The notes under the pieces: model-generated
Databases searched by the model: none
Told to the model about the DNA's origin: nothing
Seen by the model: the letters and a program-made list of their open reading frames with translations, nothing else
Assembly: GCF_058153355.1 (NCBI RefSeq)
Contig: NZ_CM177019.1
DNA length: 64,000 bases
Strand: one strand, 5' to 3'
Shown: piece after piece, positions 6,773 to 47,805 of the stretch
Position numbering within the stretch: position 1 is the first letter of the stretch
Layout: every line of letters starts with the position of its first letter
Position numbers and translations under genes: made by a program

Positions 6773-6801
6773 GGAGGCGAAGGTGCCTCCCGTTTTATTT
6801 T
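6773..6801 (+). terminator. Intrinsic terminator of ompR-envZ
   Basis: ggaggcgaaggtgcctcc hairpin followed by cgttttatttt, 9 nt after the envZ stop. Confidence 0.8.
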
Positions 6802-6927
6802 GTGCACTCAGTATCTACTGAATGAATACGGTTTCAGACATCGGCACCATACGAAGTAAAGTGTACTGTAAGCTGATTGCAGGCTAGCGTATCCTGATTA
6901 GTAAAAGCACACTAAAGGAATAGCTTG

Positions 6928-8211
6928 ATGCAACTTACCAACGAAGAACAAGTACAGATTGCTCGTATAAAAGAAAAAATCCCACGCATTGCCGCACTGG
7001 ATCCTGAATGTAAGTTATTCGGTTCTGAAGGTTGGAAATATCAATGGCCGAAGCCTGCCAGCGAGGCGGAAATAGCTTCCTGGGAGAAAAAACATAGCGT
7101 CACTTTGCCACGGGAATATCGAATTTTTCTTCGCTATATCGCTAATGGCGGTCCGGCACATGCCTACGGTCTTGAATCTTTAGGCGGTACAGATATTTAT
7201 GGCGATATAACAAAAGAAAGCCCTGTACCGCTTTATATGACGCAGCAGGATGTTGATGTGTTGAATGCAGGCCGTACAGAAGATGATGAAGAATATAGTT
7301 TTTTTGACGGCGCATTGACCATTCTCACCCTGGGATGTACTTATGATATTTGCCTGGTGGTGACGGGGCAGTATCGCGGAAGGTTAATGCTGACTGATGG
7401 TGATGAAGATTATCCGTTTGATTTTATATATGATAAAAATTTCCTCAACTGGTATGAACGCTGGCTGGACGATTTTATTGCTGGCATGAGTATGAAGGGT
7501 TTCGATAGAAGTTTGCCAGGAACGCAAATTCAACTGCGTGAGTGGTTTTTAACTGAGAAAATCCCGGATTTACGTAGATCCATTTTATTCTCGCTATGCC
7601 GTTTTCCACAGATAGAACCCGAAACATTTGCCCTTTGGGAACATGTTTGCCGCACAGAGAATGATAAAGAATTGTGTGAAGAGGCATTCATAAGATTACG
7701 CCAAAAAAAAGTTTCTTGTGCTGCAGATATTTTTCGACTCTATTTTACAATGCCAGATGAATTACGTGATATTGCTATTAAAGATCTCCGTTTTGCCTGT
7801 AGAGATAGTGTGGTGAATATTGAGGATTATATTCATTCACTGTTAATAATAATGCCTGAACTTGACGATGACACTCTATCCTCAGCTGTCTTTGCTGTAC
7901 GAGAAACAGAGTATAATAAATATGATACTTTTCTGCCGCTTCTCGAACGTATCACTGATGACCGTCAGCAAACATTATTGTGGGCGATGAGTAAGGCGCC
8001 TGATTTCAATGAAAGCCGAGGATTCGTTGAGTTGGTATTACCGCTTTTTGCATCATCAAAGATGGAGAATGTAAGGAAGGCTATTTTGTTGCTCATTGAA
8101 GTTAAAGATAATCGTATTCCACCATTGGTTGATGAAGCTGCAACTCGTTTCCCTGAACTGACCATTTTACGAGAAAACTACTATCTCAGGACGTGGGGAC
8201 ATAAGCCATAA
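6928..8211 (+). CDS. Hypothetical protein with N-terminal SUKH/SMI1-KNR4-like domain and C-terminal alpha-helical (HEAT-like) repeat region; first gene of the AT-rich island
   Basis: Long ORF (427 aa from the ATG; the track starts 3 nt upstream at TTG). RBS aaggaa lies 7 nt upstream of the ATG. Motif SEAEIASWEKKHSVTLPREYRIFLRYIANGG resembles the SMI1/KNR4 (SUKH-1) signature. The C-terminal part, e.g. ENVRKAILLLIEVKDNRIPPLVDEA, looks HEAT-like. Not a K-12 gene that I recognise. Confidence 0.8.
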   Translation: MQLTNEEQVQIARIKEKIPRIAALDPECKLFGSEGWKYQWPKPASEAEIASWEKKHSVTLPREYRIFLRYIANGGPAHAYGLESLGGTDIYGDITKESPVPLYMTQQDVDVLNAGRTEDDEEYSFFDGALTILTLGCTYDICLVVTGQYRGRLMLTDGDEDYPFDFIYDKNFLNWYERWLDDFIAGMSMKGFDRSLPGTQIQLREWFLTEKIPDLRRSILFSLCRFPQIEPETFALWEHVCRTENDKELCEEAFIRLRQKKVSCAADIFRLYFTMPDELRDIAIKDLRFACRDSVVNIEDYIHSLLIIMPELDDDTLSSAVFAVRETEYNKYDTFLPLLERITDDRQQTLLWAMSKAPDFNESRGFVELVLPLFASSKMENVRKAILLLIEVKDNRIPPLVDEAATRFPELTILRENYYLRTWGHKP

Positions 8212-8248
8212 ATTAATGGCTCAGAAATGATCTAACGCGGAGAGAAAT

Positions 8249-8779
8249 ATGATCAGGGAACATATTCAGCAAGCGATAAATAATAGGTTAGCATTTGATG
8301 GCCCATTCAATGTTGTTCCTGAACCTGCAAGCACTGCGTTTGATAGCCGGATCCCGACATTGAAAAACGGTGTCTGGCAGAAGGCCAGCCCTATGTTGCA
8401 GGCGCGTTTTGCACATTGTGGACGTTGGTTAAGCGCTACACATGGAAGCTGGCTAAGTATAAGTGACATGGAAACGCTTTGGCAGGAACACATAGAAGAT
8501 ACGTTTCTTGATGAAATCAAAATGAATGCTGTAGCTTCAAGTGATAATTGGGATAACCATGCCTTGGGACTATTTCGTTCTCATCGCCTGTCACTTTTTG
8601 CCGGTAGTGATTACATTTATGAAATGGTTTTTCTCCTTTGGCTAGATAGTACCGTTGAGCCAGAGGTCTGGGTTTATGACTGCAATGGGGAATCACGTTA
8701 TAAAGATCTTAATGATTACCTGAATGCATATATTAATGATGACGTAAGCGCCTGTGAGCGCTCCTGGCGAGTAGAATGA
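8249..8779 (+). CDS. Hypothetical small soluble Trp-rich protein (island gene 2)
   Basis: 176-aa ORF with GGAGAG RBS 5 nt upstream, 37 bp after gene 1. No TM segment. No family recognised with confidence; the C-terminal VWVYDCNGESRYKDLNDYLNAYIND weakly recalls SUKH-type immunity folds. Confidence 0.75.
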   Translation: MIREHIQQAINNRLAFDGPFNVVPEPASTAFDSRIPTLKNGVWQKASPMLQARFAHCGRWLSATHGSWLSISDMETLWQEHIEDTFLDEIKMNAVASSDNWDNHALGLFRSHRLSLFAGSDYIYEMVFLLWLDSTVEPEVWVYDCNGESRYKDLNDYLNAYINDDVSACERSWRVE

Positions 8780-9402
8780 ATAGCCCCCCTTGCCCCTTTG
8801 ATCCACAAACCGCACATTACCTCGGTACAGTGCAAATCCACTACACCTCAACCACCTTCAACGCTGCCGTTAAGCATTATACCTATCACATTAAAAAGCG
8901 TTTTAAAGGGTTTAAATGGGGAATTGGTACCGCTGGCTTATTGGCTATATTGCCCATGATCCCACAATGGTTGAAACCTTCTCATGACTTTAAACTCAAC
9001 GCAATCAGTACGTTAATTCTTCTATTAATGTTGCCACTCCTCTTATCAATGTTCCTGTTAATCAGCAGAAGAATTAACGATTTTAAGTCAAAAACAAAGC
9101 AAGTTACTTTTACGAAACCCGTGCGTTATGCGTTTTATTTCGAGGGGATTGTTTTTTATGAATCTCATCAGCAGGGCATACTTCGCTGGGAAGATTTTTA
9201 TAGCATTGACTATGAAGAAGATTATTTGTGGCTTTTTCTGCATTTACCGAAGAGTTTTCCCAGAGAAGCGACGAAAGCGTTTTGCGATATTTTCATTCCC
9301 GCCAGCGCGATAAAAGCGCAGCCTGAACTGGATACGTTTTTTCGTGAAACACGCCACTATCTGGATTATCTGTTTGTCCCGTTTAATTCTGACAGAAAAT
9401 AA
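8776..9402 (+). CDS. Hypothetical inner-membrane protein (2 predicted TM helices) with C-terminal soluble domain (island gene 3)
   Basis: 208-aa ORF whose ATG overlaps the gene 2 stop (ATGA). Hydrophobic stretches WGIGTAGLLAILPMIPQWL (aa 48-66) and AISTLILLLMLPLLLSMFLLI (aa 76-96). The C-terminal ~110 aa are possibly YcxB-like/bacterial PH-like (unverified). Confidence 0.75.
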   Translation: MNSPPCPFDPQTAHYLGTVQIHYTSTTFNAAVKHYTYHIKKRFKGFKWGIGTAGLLAILPMIPQWLKPSHDFKLNAISTLILLLMLPLLLSMFLLISRRINDFKSKTKQVTFTKPVRYAFYFEGIVFYESHQQGILRWEDFYSIDYEEDYLWLFLHLPKSFPREATKAFCDIFIPASAIKAQPELDTFFRETRHYLDYLFVPFNSDRK

Positions 9403-9403
9403 A

Positions 9404-9437
9404 AAATCCCCCGTATCTGGTGAAACGGGGGATTTCG
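9404..9437. terminator. Intrinsic terminator shared by island gene 3 (+) and pck (-)
   Basis: aaaaaatcccccgt...acgggggatttcg hairpin with an A-run on one side giving a T-run on the minus strand; sits between the gene 3 stop (9402) and the pck stop (9455). Confidence 0.75.
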
Positions 9438-9454
9438 TCGCTTAACTTATCGGA

Positions 9455-31346: not shown

Positions 31347-31361
31347 TTTAACATTAATGCC

Positions 31362-31387
31362 AAAAACCGGGGAAACCCGGTTTTTTA
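31362..31387 (+). terminator. Intrinsic terminator after trpS
   Basis: aaaaaccggggaaacccggtttttt. Confidence 0.8.
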
Positions 31388-31505
31388 TCCTCTTTTCGCA
31401 ACAACCCGAAAAAATGTGAAGTGCCTCGCCGTTTCCACATCTCATAGTTGCCACTTATCTTCAATTTAATGAAGATATAAATATTCACTTTATTGAAAAT
31501 TTACT

Positions 31506-32411
31506 ATGCGTCGAACGTTTATCAAAAAAGAAGGCGTCGTCATCACGACTCTGGCTCGTTATCTGTTAGGTGAAAAGTGCGGTAATCGACTGAAAACCAT
31601 AGATGAACTGGCAACTGAATGCCATTCATCGGTTGGTCTGACACAGGCCGCATTGAAAACACTGGAATCTGGCGGCGCGATACGGATAGAACGCCGTGGG
31701 CGCAATGGCAGTTATCTGGTGGAAATGGATAACAAAGCGCTGCTGAGTCATGTGGATATCAATAACGTTGTGTGTGCCATGCCTTTGCCCTATACCCGCT
31801 TGTACGAAGGTTTAGCAAGCGGGCTGAAAGCCCAGTTTGATGGCATTCCTTTTTACTATGCGCATATGCGCGGCGCGGATATTCGTGTGGAGTGTTTACT
31901 TAACGGCGTGTATGACATGGCGGTGGTTTCCCGACTGGCGGCGGAAAGTTATCTCACGCAAAAAGGGTTATGCCTCGCGCTGGAGTTGGGGCCGCATACC
32001 TACGTTGGCGAGCACCAGTTGATTTGCCGTAAAGGCGAGTCCGCAAACGTGAAGCGCGTGGGGCTGGATAACCGTTCGGCGGATCAGAAAATCATGACCG
32101 ATGTCTTTTTTGGCGATAGTGATGTGGAACGAGTCGATCTCTCTTATCACGAGAGTTTACAACGCATTGTTAAAGGCGATGTTGATGCTGTTATCTGGAA
32201 CGTGGTGGCAGAAAACGAACTGACCATGCTGGGATTAGAAGCGACGCCGCTCACAGACGATCCGCGATTTTTACAGGCCACCGAAGCCGTGGTTTTGACG
32301 CGTGCCGATGATTACCCAATGCAACAACTGCTGCGTGCAGTGGTTGATAAACAGGCCCTGCTTGCCCATCAACAACGAGTGGTGAGTGGGGAACAGGAAC
32401 CCAGTTATTAA
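31506..32411 (+). CDS. yhfZ: Putative transcriptional regulator YhfZ
   Basis: 301-aa ORF; the N-terminus is HTH-like; occupies the K-12 yhfZ position next to trpS. Confidence 0.8.
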   Translation: MRRTFIKKEGVVITTLARYLLGEKCGNRLKTIDELATECHSSVGLTQAALKTLESGGAIRIERRGRNGSYLVEMDNKALLSHVDINNVVCAMPLPYTRLYEGLASGLKAQFDGIPFYYAHMRGADIRVECLLNGVYDMAVVSRLAAESYLTQKGLCLALELGPHTYVGEHQLICRKGESANVKRVGLDNRSADQKIMTDVFFGDSDVERVDLSYHESLQRIVKGDVDAVIWNVVAENELTMLGLEATPLTDDPRFLQATEAVVLTRADDYPMQQLLRAVVDKQALLAHQQRVVSGEQEPSY

Positions 32412-32427
32412 ATGAAAGGCATCTGAA

Positions 32428-32790
32428 ATGGAAACCAGACTCAACCTGCTTTGCGAGGCAGGCGTTATTGATAAGGACATCTGCAAAGGCATGATGCAGG
32501 TCGTTAAGGTACTGGAAAGCGAATGCCATTTGCCAGTGCGCAGTGAGCAAGGAACCATGGCGATGACGCATATGGCGAGTGCACTGATGCGCAGTCGCCG
32601 TGGTGAAGAAATAGAGCCGCTGGATAACGAATTGCTGGCAGAGCTGGCGCAATCCAGCCACTGGCCAGCCATTTTGCAATTGCATCAGGTGTTGTTGAAG
32701 GAATTCGCGCTGGAAGTTAACCCGTGTGAAGAAGGCTATTTGCTGGCCAACCTTTATGGATTATGGATGGCTGCTAACGAAGAGGTTTGA
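32428..32790 (+). CDS. yhfY: PRD-domain-like protein YhfY
   Basis: 120-aa ORF, second gene of the yhf cluster. Confidence 0.8.
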   Translation: METRLNLLCEAGVIDKDICKGMMQVVKVLESECHLPVRSEQGTMAMTHMASALMRSRRGEEIEPLDNELLAELAQSSHWPAILQLHQVLLKEFALEVNPCEEGYLLANLYGLWMAANEEV

Positions 32791-32873
32791 GGCTCCCGAC
32801 AAATCCACGTCGCACAACCTAAATATTCAAAAAAATGAATGTTTAATTCAAGGAACAGAAACGAGGCAACAAG

Positions 32874-34037
32874 ATGTTTGTAGAAGCATTGAAACGCCAG
32901 AACCCGGCACTGATTTCCGCCGCACTAAGATTGTGGCAACAGGGCAAGATCGCCCCGGACAGTTGGGTAATCGACGTGGATCAGATACTGGAAAACGGTA
33001 AGCGGCTGATTGAGACGGCGCGGCTTTACGGTATTGAACTGTATCTGATGACCAAACAGTTCGGTCGTAATCCGTGGTTGGCAGAAAAACTGCTGGCGCT
33101 GGGCTACAGCGGCATTGTGGCGGTGGATTACAAAGAGGCACGAATCATGCGCCGCGCAGGTTTACCGGTGGCGCATCAGGGGCATCTGGTACAAATCCCT
33201 TGTCATCAGGTTTCTGACGCCGTTGAACAGGGCACCGACGTCATCACCGTGTTTACACTCGACAAAGCGCGGGAAGTTTCTGCGGCAGCGGTGACGGCCG
33301 GGCGGGTCCAGCCTGTGCTGCTCAAAGTTTATAGCGACGATGATTTTCTTTATCCGGGGCAGGAGAGCGGTTTTGCACAGCATTCGCTGCATGAGGTGGT
33401 TGCTGAAATCCAGAAACTACCGGGGTTACATTTAGCCGGATTAACCCATTTCCCTTGCCTGCTATGGGATGAGGCTGCCGGGAAAGTTTTGCCAACACCG
33501 AACCTCCAGACGCTGGTCAATGCTCGTAACCAACTTCTGAAGTCTGGAGTTGTACTTGAGCAATTAAACGCGCCTTCAGCGACCAGCTGCACTTCGCTGC
33601 CATTACTGGCGGAATACGGTGTGACTCATGCCGAACCCGGCCATGCGCTGACGGGGACGATTCCGGCAAACCAGCAGGGCGACCAACCTGAACGTATCGC
33701 CATGCTTTGGCTGAGCGAAATTTCCCATCACTTCCGTGGCGACAGCTACTGCTACGGCGGCGGTTATTACCGTCGTGGTCACGCGCAACATGCGCTGGTA
33801 TTTACACCAGAAAATCAAAGCATTACTGAAACATATCTCAAAGTCGTAGATGACAGCAGTATCGACTACACCCTGCCGCTGGCAGGCGAGTATCCGGTGA
33901 GCAGTGCAGTGGTGCTCTGTTTTCGCACGCAGATTTTTGTCACCCGTAGCGATGTGGTGCTGGTGTCCGGTATTCACCGTGGCGAACCGGAAATCGTTGG
34001 TCGTTATGACAGTCTTGGAAGCTCTCTGGAGGCGTAA
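32874..34037 (+). CDS. yhfX: Putative PLP-dependent enzyme YhfX (alanine racemase-like fold)
   Basis: 387-aa ORF in conserved order. Confidence 0.8.
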
Positions 34038-35263
34038 TGGCGCGATTTGTGGTGTTAGTGATTGATAGCTTTGGCGTAGGGGCAATGAAAGATGTCACGT
34101 TGGTGCGTCCGCAGGATGCCGGGGCGAATACCTGTGGTCACATCCTGAGCCAGTTGCCGCATTTGCAGCTACCAACGCTGGAGAAAATGGGGCTAATCAA
34201 CGCATTAGGTTATGCGCCTGGCGATATGCAGCCGTCAGACTCCGCAACCTGGGGTGTGGCAGAGCTGCAACATGAAGGTGGCGATACCTTTATGGGGCAT
34301 CAGGAAATTTTAGGCACGCGCCCGTTACCGCCGCTGCGGATGCCCTTTCGCGATGTGATTGACCGTGTTGAACAGGCATTAGTCACCGCTGGCTGGCGGG
34401 TTGAGCGCCGTGGCGAAGAGTTGCAATTTCTGTGGGTCAATCAGGCGGTTGCGATTGGCGATAATCTCGAGGCGGATTTAGGCCAGGTCTATAACATCAC
34501 CGCCAATCTCTCTGTGATCTCTTTTGACGACGCAATCAAAATTGGTCGTATCGTGCGTGAGCAGGTACAGGCCGGTCGGGTCATTGCATTTGGCGGCCTG
34601 TTAACTGACAGTCAGCGCATTCTCGATGCCGCAGAAAGCAAAGAAGGGCGCTTTATTGGCATCAATGCGCCGCGTTCTGGCGCTTATGACAACGGTTTCC
34701 AGGTCGTACATATGGGCTATGGCGTCGATGAAAAAGTGCAGGTGCCGCACCAACTGCATCAAGTGGGCGTGCCCACGGTGCTGGTGGGTAAGGTGGCAGA
34801 TATCGTCAGCAATCCTTATGGCGTGAGCTGGCAAAACCTGGTGGATAGCCAGCGGATTATGGATATCACCCTCGACGAATTTAACACGCATCCGACGGCG
34901 TTTATTTGCACCAATATCCAGGAAACCGACCTCGCTGGTCACGCAGAAGACGTCGCACGTTATGCCGAACGTTTGCAGGTCGTTGACCGTAACCTTGTCC
35001 GGCTTGTTGAGGCGATGCAGCCAGATGATTGCCTGGTCGTGATGGCGGATCACGGTAACGATCCGACCATTGGTCACAGCCACCATACCCGTGAAGTAGT
35101 GCCAGTGCTGGTTTATCAGCAAGGGCTGGTCCACACGCAACTCGGTGTGCGCACCACGCTTTCTGATGTGGGGGCTACCGTGTGTGAATTTTTCCGTGCG
35201 CCACCGCCACAAAATGGTCGCTCTTTTCTTTCCTCCCTCCGGTTTGCAGGAGACACCCTATGA
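34037..35263 (+). CDS. yhfW: Putative phosphopentomutase-family mutase YhfW
   Basis: 408 aa; the start overlaps the yhfX stop (TAATG). Confidence 0.8.
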
Positions 35264-36138
35264 GTTTTGATCCGACGGGCTTCACCCTCGCCCATGAGCA
35301 TCTGCATATTGATCTCTCCGGCTTTAAAAACAACGTGGACTGCCGCCTTGATCAGTATGCGTTCATTTGCCAGGAGATGAACGACCTGATGGCACTGGGT
35401 GTGCGTAATGTGATTGAGATGACCAACCGTTACATGGGGCGCAATGCACAATTTATGCTCGATGTAATGCACGAGACGGGGATCAACGTGGTGGCCTGCA
35501 CCGGTTATTACCAGGACGCGTTTTTCCCGCAACATGTGGCGACCCGCAGCGTGCAGGAACTGGCGCAGGAGATGGTCGATGAAATTGAACAGGGTATCGA
35601 TGGCACGGAGCTGAAAGCCGGGATCATCGCGGAGATCGGCTCCAGCGAAGGAAAGATTACGCCGCTGGAAGAGAAAGTTTTTATTGCCGCCGCGCTGGCA
35701 CATAACCAGACCGGACGCCCGATCTCCACGCATACGTCGTTCAGCACGATGGGGCTGGAGCAATTGGCTCTGTTGCAAGCCCACGGAGTTGATCTTTCGC
35801 GCGTCACCGTTGGTCACTGCGATCTGAAAGACAACCTCGACAACATTTTGAAGATGATCGATCTCGGCGCGTATGTGCAGTTCGACACCATCGGCAAGAA
35901 CAGTTACTACCCGGACGAAAAGCGCATTGCGATGCTCCACGCGCTACGTGACCGTGGTTTGCTGAACCGCGTCATGCTGTCGATGGATATTACGCGCCGC
36001 TCCCATTTAAAAGCCAACGGTGGTTATGGCTATGACTATTTATTGACCACCTTTATTCCGCAATTGCGCCAGTCAGGATTCAGTCAGGCCGATGTGGATG
36101 TGATGTTACGTGAAACTCCCTCTCAATTTTTCCAATAA
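35260..36138 (+). CDS. php: Phosphotriesterase homology protein
   Basis: 292 aa starting [20 protein letters not shown] (metal-binding HxH); overlaps the yhfW end. Confidence 0.9.
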
Positions 36139-36148
36139 GGACAGACTC

Positions 36149-36502
36149 ATGAAAAAGATTGGTGTTGCAGGCTTACAGCGTGAGCAGATTAAAAAAACCA
36201 TTGAAGCGACGGCTCCTGGCTGTTTTGAAGTTTTCATTCATAACGACATGGAAGCGGCGATGAAGGTGAAATCCGGGCAACTGGATTACTACATCGGCGC
36301 GTGTAATACCGGTGCGGGCGCGGCATTGTCGATTGCCATCGCGGTGATTGGCTATAACAAAAGTTGCACCATTGCCAAGCCGGGCATTAAAGCGAAAGAC
36401 GAGCATATCGCCAAAATGATCGCCGAAGGGAAAGTGGCGTTTGGGCTATCCGTTGAGCATGTCGAACACGCGATTCCGATGCTGATTAACCATCTGAAAT
36501 AA
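36149..36502 (+). CDS. yhfU: Uncharacterised protein YhfU
   Basis: Start taken at the internal MKKIGVAGLQREQIKK (117 aa), which avoids a long overlap with php. Confidence 0.75.
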   Translation: MKKIGVAGLQREQIKKTIEATAPGCFEVFIHNDMEAAMKVKSGQLDYYIGACNTGAGAALSIAIAVIGYNKSCTIAKPGIKAKDEHIAKMIAEGKVAFGLSVEHVEHAIPMLINHLK

Positions 36503-36513
36503 AAGGCACGACT

Positions 36514-37818
36514 ATGGATCTGTATATTCAGATTATCGTGGTGGCGTGCCTGACGGGTATGACATCGCTTCTGGCGCATCGCTCGGCAGCCGTTTTTCAT
36601 GACGGTATCCGCCCGATCCTGCCGCAACTGATTGAAGGCTATATGAACCGTCGTGAGGCGGGGAGTATCGCTTTTGGTCTGAGCATTGGTTTTGTGGCCT
36701 CGGTGGGGATCTCTTTTACCCTGAAAACCGGGCTGCTCAACGCATGGTTACTCTTTCTTCCTACCGATATCCTCGGCGTACTGGCGATAAACAGCCTGAT
36801 GGCGTTTGGCCTTGGTGCACTCTGGGGCGTACTGATCCTCACCTGCCTGCTGCCGGTAAACCAGCTGCTGACCGCGCTACCGGTGGATGTATTAGGTAGT
36901 CTGGGGGAATTAAGCTCGCCAGTGGTTTCAGCTTTTGCACTGTTCCCGTTGGTGGCGATTTTCTACCAGTTTGGCTGGAAGCAAAGTCTGATCGCCGCCG
37001 TGGTAGTGTTGATGACCCGTGTGGTGGTAGTGCGCTATTTCCCGCATCTCAATCCGGAATCCATCGAAATCTTTATTGGCATGGTGATGCTGCTGGGGAT
37101 CGCGATTACTCACGACCTGCGTCATCGTGATGAAAATGATATCGATGCCAGCGGTATGTCGGTGTTTGAAGAACGCACGTCCAGGATTATTAAAAACTTA
37201 CCCTATATCGCCATCGTAGGGGCGCTGATTGCCGCCGTTGCCAGCATGAAGATTTTTGCTGGTAGTGAAGTGTCGATCTTCACCCTGGAGAAAGCATATT
37301 CCGCAGGCGTAACGCCGGAACAATCACAAACGCTGATCAACCAGGCGGCGCTGGCGGAATTTATGCGCGGGCTTGGCTTTGTGCCTTTGATTGCCACCAC
37401 GGCCTTAGCCACCGGCGTATATGCAGTTGCGGGCTTTACCTTTGTTTATGCGGTGGGCTATCTCTCGCCGAATCCGATGGTTGCGGCGGTATTAGGCGCA
37501 GTGGTTATTTCGGCAGAAGTCCTGTTACTTCGTTCGATCGGCAAATGGCTGGGACGCTACCCATCGGTACGTAATGCGTCGGATAACATCCGTAACGCCA
37601 TGAATATGCTGATGGAAGTGGCTCTGTTGGTCGGTTCGATTTTCGCAGCAATTAAGATGGCGGGCTATACCGGATTCTCTATCGCGGTTGCCATTTACTT
37701 CCTCAACGAATCTCTGGGCCGTCCGGTACAGAAAATGGCGGCACCGGTCGTAGCAGTAATGATCACCGGCATCCTGCTGAATGTTCTTTACTGGCTTGGT
37801 CTGTTCGTTCCGGCTTAA
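36514..37818 (+). CDS. yhfT: Putative inner-membrane transporter YhfT
   Basis: 434-aa polytopic membrane ORF. Confidence 0.8.
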   Translation: MDLYIQIIVVACLTGMTSLLAHRSAAVFHDGIRPILPQLIEGYMNRREAGSIAFGLSIGFVASVGISFTLKTGLLNAWLLFLPTDILGVLAINSLMAFGLGALWGVLILTCLLPVNQLLTALPVDVLGSLGELSSPVVSAFALFPLVAIFYQFGWKQSLIAAVVVLMTRVVVVRYFPHLNPESIEIFIGMVMLLGIAITHDLRHRDENDIDASGMSVFEERTSRIIKNLPYIAIVGALIAAVASMKIFAGSEVSIFTLEKAYSAGVTPEQSQTLINQAALAEFMRGLGFVPLIATTALATGVYAVAGFTFVYAVGYLSPNPMVAAVLGAVVISAEVLLLRSIGKWLGRYPSVRNASDNIRNAMNMLMEVALLVGSIFAAIKMAGYTGFSIAVAIYFLNESLGRPVQKMAAPVVAVMITGILLNVLYWLGLFVPA

Positions 37819-37829
37819 GGAAGGCACCT

Positions 37830-38915
37830 ATGAAGACGTTTCCTTTGCAAAGCCTGACGCTTATTGAAGCGCAGCAAAAGCAGTTTGCGTTGGTGGATAC
37901 GATTTGCCGCCATTTTCCCGGCGCGGAGTTTCTTACCCGCGGTGATTTGGGCTTAACGCCGGGACTGAATCAACCGCGTATTACTCAGCGTGTGGAGCAG
38001 GTGCTGGCTGACGCGTTTCATGCGCCAGCGGCGGCGCTGGTACAGGGCGCGGGTACTGGAGCGATTCGTGCGGCGTTGGCGGCTTTGCTCAAACCGGGGC
38101 AGCGTCTTCTGGTGCATGACGCGCCTGTTTACCCGACGACTCAGGTCATTATTGAGCAGATGGGGCTGACACTTATCACTGCTGATTTCAACAACCTGTC
38201 GGCGCTTAAACAGGCCATTGAAGAGCAACAACCAGATGCCGCGCTGGTGCAGCATACGCGCCAGCAGCCGCAGGACAGCTATGTACTGGCAGATGTGCTG
38301 GCAACGCTGCGCGCAGCAGGTGTTCCAGCCTTAACCGATGACAACTATGCGGTGATGAAGGTGGCGCGCATTGGCTGTGAATGCGGGGCGAATGTCTCGA
38401 CATTTTCCTGCTTCAAGCTATTTGGGCCAGAAGGTGTTGGCGCGGTGGTAGGCGATGCTGATGTTATTAACCGTATTCGCGCCACGCTCTACTCCGGCGG
38501 CAGCCAGATTCAGGGCGCGCAGGCGTTGGAAGTCTTGCGTGGGCTGGTATTCGCGCCAGTGATGCACGCGGTACAGGCGGGGGTATCTGAGCGGTTGCTG
38601 GCTTTACTTAACGGTGGCGCGGTGGCGGAAGTTAAAAGCGCCGTTATTGCCAATGCACAGTCGAAGGTGTTGATTGTGGAGTTTCATCAACCGATTGCCG
38701 CCAGAGTGCTTGAAGAGGCGCAAAAGCGCGGCGCGTTGCCTTATCCGGTCGGCGCAGAGTCAAAATATGAAATCCCGCCGCTCTTTTATCGACTTTCCGG
38801 AACGTTTCGTCAGGCGAATCCGCAATTAGAACATTGTGCAATTCGCATTAACCCGAATCGCAGCGGTGATGAGACGGTATTGCGGATTTTGCGCGAGAGT
38901 ATTGCCAGCGTTTAA
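37830..38915 (+). CDS. yhfS: Putative PLP-dependent aminotransferase-like protein YhfS
   Basis: 361-aa ORF, last gene of the yhf cluster. Confidence 0.8.
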   Translation: MKTFPLQSLTLIEAQQKQFALVDTICRHFPGAEFLTRGDLGLTPGLNQPRITQRVEQVLADAFHAPAAALVQGAGTGAIRAALAALLKPGQRLLVHDAPVYPTTQVIIEQMGLTLITADFNNLSALKQAIEEQQPDAALVQHTRQQPQDSYVLADVLATLRAAGVPALTDDNYAVMKVARIGCECGANVSTFSCFKLFGPEGVGAVVGDADVINRIRATLYSGGSQIQGAQALEVLRGLVFAPVMHAVQAGVSERLLALLNGGAVAEVKSAVIANAQSKVLIVEFHQPIAARVLEEAQKRGALPYPVGAESKYEIPPLFYRLSGTFRQANPQLEHCAIRINPNRSGDETVLRILRESIASV

Positions 38916-39019
38916 TTCTGGGAACGATGTTTTCGCAGAGGATGGAGAAAAATACGCCCTCGGAAAATTCAGAGGGCGTTAGCTCATTAAATCGGTGTTA
39001 GCCGATTTCTGTCAGAGAC

Positions 39020-46328: not shown

Positions 46329-46910
<582 letters not shown>

Positions 46911-47014
46911 TGATTTCTCGCGCGGGCAATCTTGCCCGCGCTTCTGCTCTCCCGGCGTAACCCGGATTTGCCGCTTATACTTGTGGCAAATGGACACGTT
47001 CAGGGAGGCATCAA

Positions 47015-47182
47015 GTGAAGAAACTCACCGATAAGCAAAAGTCCCGTCTCTGGGAGCTTCAGCGTAATCGTAATTTCCAGGCCAGTCGCCGTCTTGAAGG
47101 CGTCGAGATGCCTTTAGTTACTCTTACTGCCGCAGAGGCTTTAGCGCGCCTTGAAGAGCTGAGGAGGCACTATGAGCGATAA
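47015..47182 (+). CDS. yhfG: Small protein YhfG (putative Fic-associated antitoxin-like partner)
   Basis: Not in the track. GTG-initiated 55 codons translating to [55 protein letters not shown]; the stop overlaps the fic start. Confidence 0.75.
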
Positions 47183-47774
47183 ATTCGGCGAAGGGCGCGA
47201 TCCGTATCTTTATCCTGGCCTTGATATCATGCGTAACCGGCTGAACATCCGCCAGCAACAGCGGCTGGAACAGGCCGCTTACGAAATGACGGCGCTGCGT
47301 GCTGCGACCATTGAGCTTGGTCCGCTGGTGCGCGGTTTACCGCATTTGCGCACTCTCCATCGCCAGCTGTATCAGGATATTTTCGACTGGGCGGGGCAAC
47401 TGCGTGAAGTTGATATTTATCAGGGCGATACACCGTTCTGCCACTTTGCTTATATCGAAAAAGAGGGCAATGCCCTGATGCAGGATCTGGAGGAAGAAGG
47501 GTATCTGGTTGGCCTGGAGAAAACGAAGTTCGTCGAGCGGCTGGCACACTACTATTGTGAAATCAACGTCCTGCATCCCTTCCGAGCGGGAAGTGGTCTG
47601 GCACAGCGGATCTTCTTCGAGCAACTGGCGATTCATGCCGGTTATCAACTGAGCTGGCAGGGTATCGAAAAAGAGGCCTGGAATCAGGCAAATCAGAGTG
47701 GGGCAATGGGTGATCTCACTGCGCTGCAGACGATATTTAGCAAAGTGGTAAGCGAAGCCGGGGAATCTGAGTAA
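47172..47774 (+). CDS. fic: Fic-domain protein (adenylyltransferase family)
   Basis: 200 aa, [24 protein letters not shown]..., containing the Fic-motif variant [12 protein letters not shown]. Confidence 0.95.
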
Positions 47775-47805
47775 AATAGCGCGGTTCTTTCGTACCGGAG
47801 CCGCC

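Follow-up and report, generated by a model that had tools for sequence, protein, structure and literature searches.

In the window, that is, in the whole stretch of 64,000 nucleotides that was analyzed, two overlapping genes, yhfG and fic, are located upstream of pabA. The coding features are the following:

47015-47182, plus strand: yhfG (ecficA), GTG start, 55 amino acids, the FicA-type partner of Fic
47172-47774, plus strand: fic (ecficT), ATG start, 200 amino acids, a class I Fic-domain protein
47172-47182, plus strand: 11-nt overlap of yhfG and fic, ATGAGCGATAA, from the fic start codon to the yhfG stop codon
47806-48369, plus strand: pabA (aminodeoxychorismate synthase subunit 2), the downstream neighbor within a conserved gene order

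The initial annotation had reported a GTG-initiated ORF of 55 codons that overlaps the start of fic at 47172-47182, and this is borne out by the sequence and the ORF list. The small protein matches the Pfam family PF10832 (YhfG; E = 1.6e-24), and the larger protein matches PF02661 (Fic/DOC; E = 1.4e-13; 51.9 bits versus a cutoff of 24) with residues 58-152. Both proteins match NCBIfam equivalogs over the full length (YhfG 7.7e-38; Fic 2.8e-128) as well as the chains of the co-crystals 5JFF/5JFZ (Fic E = 5.9e-132; YhfG E = 3.9e-30), and the identity to the EcFicT/EcFicA chains is 98% for YhfG and for Fic. The RefSeq annotation of the region is yhfG/ficA and fic, and in some recent RefSeq records the small gene is called "ficA: FicA/YhfG family antitoxin". 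The neighborhood, consisting of tsgA (on the opposite strand), ppiA, yhfG, fic, pabA, argD, yhfK, and crp, matches that of E. coli K-12 and of other RefSeq E. coli. Klebsiella and Superficieibacter have an ATG in place of the E. coli GTG, which confirms the start position of yhfG. On the evidence of the Pfam and NCBIfam matches, the dN/dS values (see below), the starts of the orthologs, and the Shine-Dalgarno sites, both ORFs are judged to be real genes and not chance ORFs. The locus is the chromosomal ficA(yhfG)-ficT(fic) module of E. coli, which is already known down to its crystal structure. A small ORF on the same strand just upstream of fic is the arrangement of class I FicT proteins, and it is common to seven genera. 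The parallel to FicT/FicA modules had been well drawn, because the near-identity to 5JFF/5JFZ, the inhibition motif, and the RefSeq name make the pair the E. coli member of this class. An Rfam search of the whole window at the gathering threshold gave no match.

The regulatory features of the locus are the following:

46920-46941, plus strand: ppiA terminator hairpin, GCGCGGGCA-ATCT-TGCCCGCGC, which separates ppiA from the yhfG-fic unit
46973-46983, plus strand: GCTTATACTTG, the extended -10 region of the fic promoter, which depends on σS (σ38); the -10 hexamer TATACT is at 46976-46981
46987 (±1 nt), plus strand: approximate yhfG-fic transcription start, placed from published fragment coordinates
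47003-47008, plus strand: yhfG Shine-Dalgarno sequence GGGAGG, 6 nt upstream of the GTG
47161-47167, plus strand: fic Shine-Dalgarno sequence GAGGAGG, inside yhfG codons 49-51 and 4 nt upstream of the fic ATG
47775-47805, plus strand: fic-pabA spacer, 31 nt, with the conserved CCGGAGCCGCCATG

The hairpin downstream of ppiA has an RNA fold centroid of -20 kcal/mol (z = -2.9), and its stem is kept in seven genera while the loop changes; its T-tract is weak, and it is absent from a simple terminator scan. The fic promoter is a textbook example of a σ38-dependent promoter (PMC3089606, PMC3141248), and in strain EDL933 (O157:H7) yhfG-fic is 133/111-fold RpoS-dependent (PMC2907692). The extended -10 region GCTTATACTTG is invariant across the seven genera, in surrounding intergenic DNA that has diverged. 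For the transcription start, the published 256-bp BanI/fic2 fragment (fic-up primer, BanI site, fic2 primer; PMC3089606) was mapped to positions 46830-47085 of the window. Its span was read as -157 to +99, the printed "-99" being taken as a typographical error (PMC3089606), and this places +1 at about 46987. The yhfG promoter went undetected in a simple σ70 consensus scan, as is expected of a σS promoter without a match to the -35 consensus. An inverted repeat, TTGCC-N12-GGCAA (46968-46989), spans the -10 element and was considered as an autoregulatory operator. It is invariant in four genera, but its arms vary when seven genera are compared and are not kept in Superficieibacter or Salmonella. 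Because the arms are variable and only GCTTATACTTG is invariant, the region was treated as an extended -10 region and not as an operator. The only Pfam match of YhfG is PF10832, and none is to a DNA-binding domain.

The signals for translation are similarly conserved. The sequence CAGGGAGG at the yhfG Shine-Dalgarno site is kept in six of the seven genera, the form (A/G)GGAG(G/T) of the fic Shine-Dalgarno sequence is common to all seven, and the 11-nt overlap ATGAGCGATAA is identical in six, while Kosakonia has the 8-nt variant ATGAGTGA. This geometry suggests that the translation of the two genes may be coupled. The terminator scan detected no terminator-like site in the 31-nt spacer between fic and pabA. 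The length of the spacer is 31-32 nt in six of the seven genera, and its 3' part is conserved in the five sequences compared. Since the spacer lacks a terminator and contains the conserved CCGGAGCCGCCATG, co-transcription of pabA is probable, and, judged from the geometry, transcripts of yhfG-fic probably read through into pabA.

The distribution of the locus is that of a core-genome element. Of 5,426 complete E. coli genomes, 5,425 contain the 1-kb region; its median copy number is one, and 5,427 of its 5,428 occurrences lie on chromosomes. The order ppiA-yhfG-fic-pabA-argD is the same in Salmonella, Klebsiella, Leclercia, Kosakonia, Superficieibacter, and Citrobacter, and ORFs of 55 and 200 codons are present in all six of these non-Escherichia loci. 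The MFS transporter gene tsgA lies upstream on the opposite strand in five of the six; upstream of the Kosakonia locus no MFS gene was found in the stretch examined. The dN/dS ratios (Nei-Gojobori, outside the overlap), calculated for orthologs from K-12, Salmonella, Klebsiella, and Leclercia, lie at 0.04-0.10 in fic and at 0.05-0.14 in yhfG; in the comparisons between genera, synonymous sites are nearly saturated. It has been reported that close homologs of EcFicT are confined to Enterobacteriaceae and are syntenic between ppiA and pabA (PMC5033356), and the locus in the window occupies this syntenic position, which is one of the features that define subgroup 3 of the EcFicT-like proteins. 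The patchy, mobile distribution that is typical of type II toxin-antitoxin systems, although it does not strictly define them, is not observed for yhfG-fic. This points to a fixed housekeeping or stress pair of the core genome and not to a mobile addiction module. That the locus is a decaying relic was also considered, and this is excluded by the conservation, the synteny, and the dN/dS results.

The partner protein carries the following motif:

47084-47101, plus strand: SRRLEG, the [S/T]xxxE[G/N] inhibition motif, yhfG codons 24-29, as read from the sequence

This motif had not been mentioned in the initial annotation. Its inhibitory glutamate is kept in 119 of 120 clusters of YhfG homologs, and the full motif [S/T]xxxE[G/N] in 114 of the 120. 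In the structure 5JFF, S24 and E28 of YhfG bind R146 of Fic, the arginine that closes its motif, and R25 of YhfG contacts T40 of Fic (PMC5033356). Both E28 and R146 are present in the allele of the window; the crystals contain proteins that are 98% identical and not the window allele itself. The pairing of the two proteins was predicted in 2009, when YhfG-Fic was described as an enterobacteria-specific, toxin-antitoxin-like pair (Makarova et al., PMC2701414). The complex is stable, has a stoichiometry of 1:1 by SEC-MALLS and crystallography, and has a Tm of 63 °C (PMC5033356). The possibility that YhfG does not interact with Fic, which had been named as an argument against the module, is answered by this published complex (PMC5033356). 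A strain of E. albertii has a stop codon in ficA and retains fic (PMC5033356, legend of S4). Fic without an intact ficA in this strain means that free Fic seems to be tolerated, and this weakens the view that YhfG restrains a harmful activity.

The signature motif of the Fic protein is located as follows:

47574-47609, plus strand: degenerate Fic signature motif, residues 135-146, in which codon 139 (47586-47588, GCG) encodes a rare Ala allele

The motif that had been noticed in Fic is present at residues 135-146, nucleotides 47574-47609. It had been proposed to align it with the canonical HxFx(D/E)GNGRxxR as a measure of catalytic competence, and in this alignment it departs from the AMPylation-competent consensus. 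His135, Phe137, Gly140, Gly142, and Arg146 are present, but three positions fail, namely D/E, which is replaced by A139, N, replaced by S141, and R1, replaced by L143. Fic has thus lost the acidic residue that binds Mg (position 139 is Ala in the window and Val in most E. coli), the Asn at the center of the motif, and R1, which binds the ATP phosphate, and because all three are replaced, it is very probably not a canonical ATP-using AMP transferase. The motif of EcFicT was described earlier as lacking R1 and the acidic residue and as derived from that of canonical AMP transferases (PMC5033356). For the K-12 protein, neither auto-AMPylation nor AMPylation of a target was found, even with the E28G variant of YhfG, and Δfic strains are viable with no defect reported (PMC5033356). 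The remark of the initial annotation that chromosomal E. coli Fic is usually considered weakly active was too cautious, since no AMPylation was detectable even when the inhibitory Glu was mutated (PMC5033356). In contradiction to the primary authors, two reviews call EcFicT growth-inhibitory or a gyrase AMPylase (PMC10886550, PMC8097203).

The degenerate motif is not a peculiarity of one strain. Homologs of Fic were taken as the 120 best cluster representatives from a database of 5.8 billion proteins (at least 79% identity). All 120 carry the form HPF[RC][LIVF]G[SNC]G[LMI][AV]QR, with R at the fourth position in 119 and C in one, and none of these 120 nearest clusters has the canonical motif. 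Salmonella, Citrobacter, Klebsiella, and Leclercia are among the sources of these clusters. None of the 120 has Ala at the fifth position of the motif, which is L, I, V, or F instead. The residues that characterize subgroup 3 of the EcFicT-like proteins (Stanger et al., 2016) are found in the Fic of the window, namely A36, T40, Y67, F71, E79, Y83, DPY at 10-12, G55, and R0 (R138), with the single exception of V139, which is A139. L143 is found at R1, and the D/E position is hydrophobic, with the reservation that Ala is atypical there. Across Enterobacteriaceae, the derived motif, the residues of the pocket, and the Glu of YhfG would therefore appear to be under strong purifying selection.

The alleles of the window differ from those of K-12 at only a few positions. 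Fic is identical to the protein of MG1655 at 196 of 200 residues (I62L, A118T, V139A, M187T), and YhfG at 54 of 55 (S51R). R51 is the common E. coli form of YhfG. The underlying G/T polymorphism at 47167 alters both YhfG residue 51 (R/S) and the strength of the ribosome-binding site of fic, which is strengthened by the R51 codon (AGGAGG, compared to AGGAGT in K-12). In contrast to R51, A139 of Fic is rare, with 16 carriers among 5,426 complete genomes. This number was obtained as 3 plus 13 by exact 31-mers on two backgrounds and as 16 in the band of at least 99% identity to a 101-nt query. On the flanks of the window, the 31-mer yielded Ala in 3 genomes and Val in none; on the CGG background, which is the K-12 haplotype, it yielded Ala in 13 and Val in 2,842. 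The absence of Val on the window flanks results from a neighboring synonymous CGA/CGG polymorphism. A third common haplotype (CGT GTG ... AGC GGA) has V139 in all three of the genomes sampled from the band of 90-95% identity. A conserved hydrophobic groove, formed by A36, F71, and V139 and edged by Y67 and T40, may bind a substrate (PMC5033356). By its sequence, V139A is a conservative exchange for a smaller hydrophobic residue within the signature motif and the proposed groove. As a whole, the window reaches no more than 98.3% identity over 22 kb with any of the complete E. coli genomes, which indicates that it stems from an under-sampled lineage.

Several characterized systems were compared with the pair in the window. 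The closest is EcFicT/EcFicA of K-12 (5JFF, 5JFZ; Stanger et al., 2016, PMC5033356), which has the same locus, overlap, promoter block, inhibition motif, and subgroup residues and differs from the window pair in its alleles only. VbhT/VbhA of Bartonella schoenbuchensis (3SHG, 3ZC7, 3ZCB) likewise has a class I architecture with the Fic fold and an N-terminal DPY lock, and its antitoxin Glu is bound to R2. VbhT matches the Fic of the window with E = 4e-33. Its NCBIfam equivalog also gives a match (5.3e-40), but with 138 bits versus a cutoff of 800, and a score so far below the cutoff characterizes the Fic of the window as a relative and not an ortholog of VbhT. Unlike it, VbhT has a canonical motif, AMPylates GyrB/ParE, is toxic and plasmid-borne, and is fused to a BID secretion domain, and VbhA is made of three helices, YhfG of two and a loop (PMC5033356). 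The closest canonical relative with a solved structure is Fic-1/AntF of Pseudomonas bijieensis 2P24 (8WT0; PMC13327609), with E = 1.6e-48 over 196 residues. It shares with the window pair the length, the numbering (H135 and R146; S24 and E28), and the small upstream partner. The alignment is gapless across the motif, which is HPFREGNGRAQR in Fic-1 compared to A139, S141, and L143 in the window, and the acidic patch E29/E36/E139 of Fic-1 corresponds to Q29, A36, and A139. Fic-1 AMPylates GyrB at Y111, and the complex of Fic-1 with AntF acts as a deAMPylase (PMC13327609). Doc/Phd of phage P1 resembles the window pair in that the Doc toxin has the Fic fold, a degenerate motif with a changed chemistry (Doc is a kinase), and a controlling small upstream partner with the same helix kink as YhfG (PMC5033356). 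The Doc system differs in its motif, its target (EF-Tu), and the family of its antitoxin, and in being a mobile addiction module.

The Fic family, which dates back about 40 years, was founded on E. coli Fic. To our knowledge, neither a substrate nor a target nor any catalysis has been demonstrated for its clade. We conclude that yhfG-fic very probably encodes a class I Fic protein together with a separately encoded inhibitory partner, and that Fic would be a derived enzyme that does not use ATP. The sequence and published experiments on proteins that are 98% identical show that the two genes are transcribed together from the σS-dependent promoter just upstream of yhfG, and that fic has a separate ribosome-binding site within the final yhfG codons, its start overlapping the yhfG stop. 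They also show that YhfG binds Fic 1:1 and inserts the end of its first helix, with the SRRLEG sequence, into the active site, where R146 of Fic is held by E28 and S24. Retained in Fic are His135, which is catalytic, the Phe and Gly residues with a structural role, and R146. Fic would be made in stationary phase, and YhfG would block it until some signal frees it. The strong purifying selection on the motif, the residues of the pocket, and the Glu of YhfG argues that Fic would most likely be an active enzyme with a different substrate or target, an argument from conservation alone. The same selection fits a non-catalytic binding role equally well.

Such a role is the core of the first alternative, which regards Fic as a catalytically dead pseudoenzyme that binds or scaffolds other components, for instance in cell division or, together with pabA, in PABA/folate metabolism, with YhfG as a structural partner. 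An old report is said to have tied fic to PABA/folate, and this has been counted in favor of this explanation; a literature search for the link retrieved no usable source. In agreement with a dead enzyme, no Fic activity has ever been detected (PMC5033356), and the linkage of fic to pabA with its 31-nt gap is kept in six of the seven genera. Furthermore, the sole known phenotype, that of the fic-1 allele G55R, maps away from the active site (PMC5033356), and the basis of this filamentation phenotype was still called elusive in 2026 (PMC13327609). However, conservation extends to His135, R146, the anion-binding Gly, the residues of the flap, and the Glu with which YhfG targets R146. The explanation fits these observations poorly, because conserved active-site residues are hard to explain if the active site is not in use, and we regard it as unlikely.

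Somewhat more doubtful still is the idea that YhfG, instead of being an antitoxin, joins Fic as the second subunit of an enzyme that requires both proteins. His135 and R146 of Fic and E28 of YhfG would form its active site, and the σS-induced enzyme might strip a target in stationary phase of a modification of the nucleotide or phosphoryl type, or might transfer one from a donor other than ATP. In that case V139A might alter the proposed groove. A more specific form of this idea is that the YhfG-Fic heterodimer is a working de-modifying enzyme that resembles a deAMPylase, in which E28 of YhfG is catalytic instead of being a plug. The precedent is Fic-1-AntF (8WT0), which has the same numbering and superimposes on 5JFF at 0.9 Å, and for which it was shown in 2026 that the complex deAMPylates GyrB in an E28-dependent manner (PMC13327609). 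It also fits that E28 is kept in 119 of the 120 YhfG clusters though Fic has lost its ATP-binding residues, and that a very stable complex is formed by the products of genes that are, judging by their geometry, translationally coupled. On the other hand, the acidic patch that is implicated in the deAMPylation by Fic-1 is replaced by Q29, A36, and A139, the metal-binding acidic residue of the motif is absent, and no matching AMPylase is known that would make the substrate. A deAMPylase-like heterodimer is therefore very unlikely.

The initial annotation had compared the pair with toxin-antitoxin modules, and of this comparison the FicT/FicA pairing stands, whereas the designation of Fic as a toxin is not established in view of the failure of the motif, the vertical inheritance, and the near-universal presence. 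A canonical type II system would require that free Fic AMPylates GyrB/ParE with ATP and stops growth, and that YhfG is a labile antitoxin. VbhT, YeFicT, PaFicT, and Fic-1 are the systems that are cited as a precedent for the AMPylation of gyrase. The pair has its fold, class I architecture, and inhibition motif in common with VbhTA and Fic-1-AntF, the NCBIfam VbhT equivalog is matched, though far below its cutoff, and EcFicT is toxic or a gyrase AMPylase according to the two reviews (PMC10886550, PMC8097203). In contrast, the acidic residue, the Asn, and R1 are missing from the motif, and the primary authors observed no auto- or target-AMPylation even with YhfG E28G (PMC5033356). The locus belongs to the core genome and is syntenic in seven genera, the E. 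albertii strain without an intact ficA keeps fic, and a complex with a Tm of 63 °C is very stable (PMC5033356). We consider a toxin of this kind highly improbable. That Fic is an anti-phage defense gene is hardly credible, because its match to the PADLOC profile PDC-S04 (E = 5.2e-75) is to a candidate family only and just reflects the similarity of the Fic domain, YhfG has no PADLOC match, and in every genus examined the locus lies between the housekeeping genes ppiA and pabA and not in a defense island.

Much of this was known before, because the pairing was predicted in 2009, the complex was crystallized in 2016, and the degenerate motif, the vertical inheritance, and the synteny were described in 2016. 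The window thus re-finds a known locus, and it makes the question of the substrate of this Fic clade no more testable than before. What is added is that the published conclusions hold on a database that is several orders of magnitude larger, that a rare variant, V139A, occurs naturally in the groove proposed to bind the substrate, and that the acidic patch needed for the deAMPylase activity of the sister complex is absent from the Fic of the window.

Comparison of the window with K-12 revealed a 2.66-kb extra segment between envZ and pck (6797-9453), which is not present in K-12. This insertion contains three open reading frames, all on the + strand:

6925-8211, + strand, ORF of 428 aa with a weak match to SUKH-1/SMI1_KNR4
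8249-8779, + strand, ORF of 176 aa
8776-9402, + strand, ORF of 208 aa

The SUKH-1/SMI1_KNR4 family is frequent among immunity proteins. For the 176-aa and 208-aa proteins no Pfam matches were found. A search of 5,426 complete E. coli genomes detected the insertion in just 19, and four of the five insertion-bearing genomes among the matches listed carry the rare Fic A139 allele.

Several further differences from K-12 were observed. The frlABCDR (fructoselysine) operon, which occupies about 5.2 kb in K-12 (3,499,685-3,504,929), is missing at 38921-38950, where the yhfS side directly abuts the yhfL side. In the yhfZ-trpS intergenic region about 146 bp of K-12 sequence are also missing (31348-31364). 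The yhfS-yhfZ block (31364-38921) is only 93.6% identical to K-12, compared to 95.7-97.6% for the adjoining blocks, and this low identity suggests that it is a divergent or recombined segment. The top match of the region 36000-58000 among the 5,426 complete E. coli genomes reached 98.3% over 22 kb. The window therefore derives from a lineage within E. coli, or from a close relative, with sparse representation among complete genomes.

A second, partly conserved intergenic block is located at 46950-46962; the -10 hexamer of the yhfG-fic promoter follows about 15 nt downstream. Comparison of seven genera yielded the approximate pattern CC(C/T)NGCG(T/G/A)AA(C/T), and the block has no likeness to a σ70 -35 hexamer. 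No Rfam family was detected at the gathering threshold across the whole 64-kb window (1-64000); in the homologous K-12 region two antisense RNAs, AsCRP and AsompR, are annotated.

In two reviews, EcFicT of E. coli is described as a growth inhibitor or as an AMPylase of gyrase/topo IV (PMC10886550, PMC8097203). According to the primary authors, AMPylation by EcFicT could not be demonstrated (PMC5033356). The statements about toxicity and AMPylation in the reviews look like an error that has been propagated through the secondary literature.

At the yhfG-fic junction, a G/T polymorphism at 47167 alters residue 51 of YhfG, which is Arg in the window and Ser in K-12; Arg51 is also present in all five other non-K-12 E. 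coli genomes that were compared. The same base is the last one of the fic Shine-Dalgarno sequence, which reads AGGAGG in the window versus AGGAGT in K-12. Single ORFs encoding YhfG-Fic fusions occur in public assemblies, namely P0001 (252 aa, 15 member sequences) and P0006 (233 aa), two homologous proteins. They may be real variants or assembly errors. The junction of P0001 reads …EELR-VT-MSDKFG…, and the corresponding site in the window is 47161-47172. Judged from its sequence, the P0001 fusion looks as though a K-12-type sequence had undergone a 1-nt deletion immediately 5' of the ATG of fic. A single frameshift would thus be enough to join the two class I partners in one class II-like Fic protein whose inhibitory helix is N-terminal.
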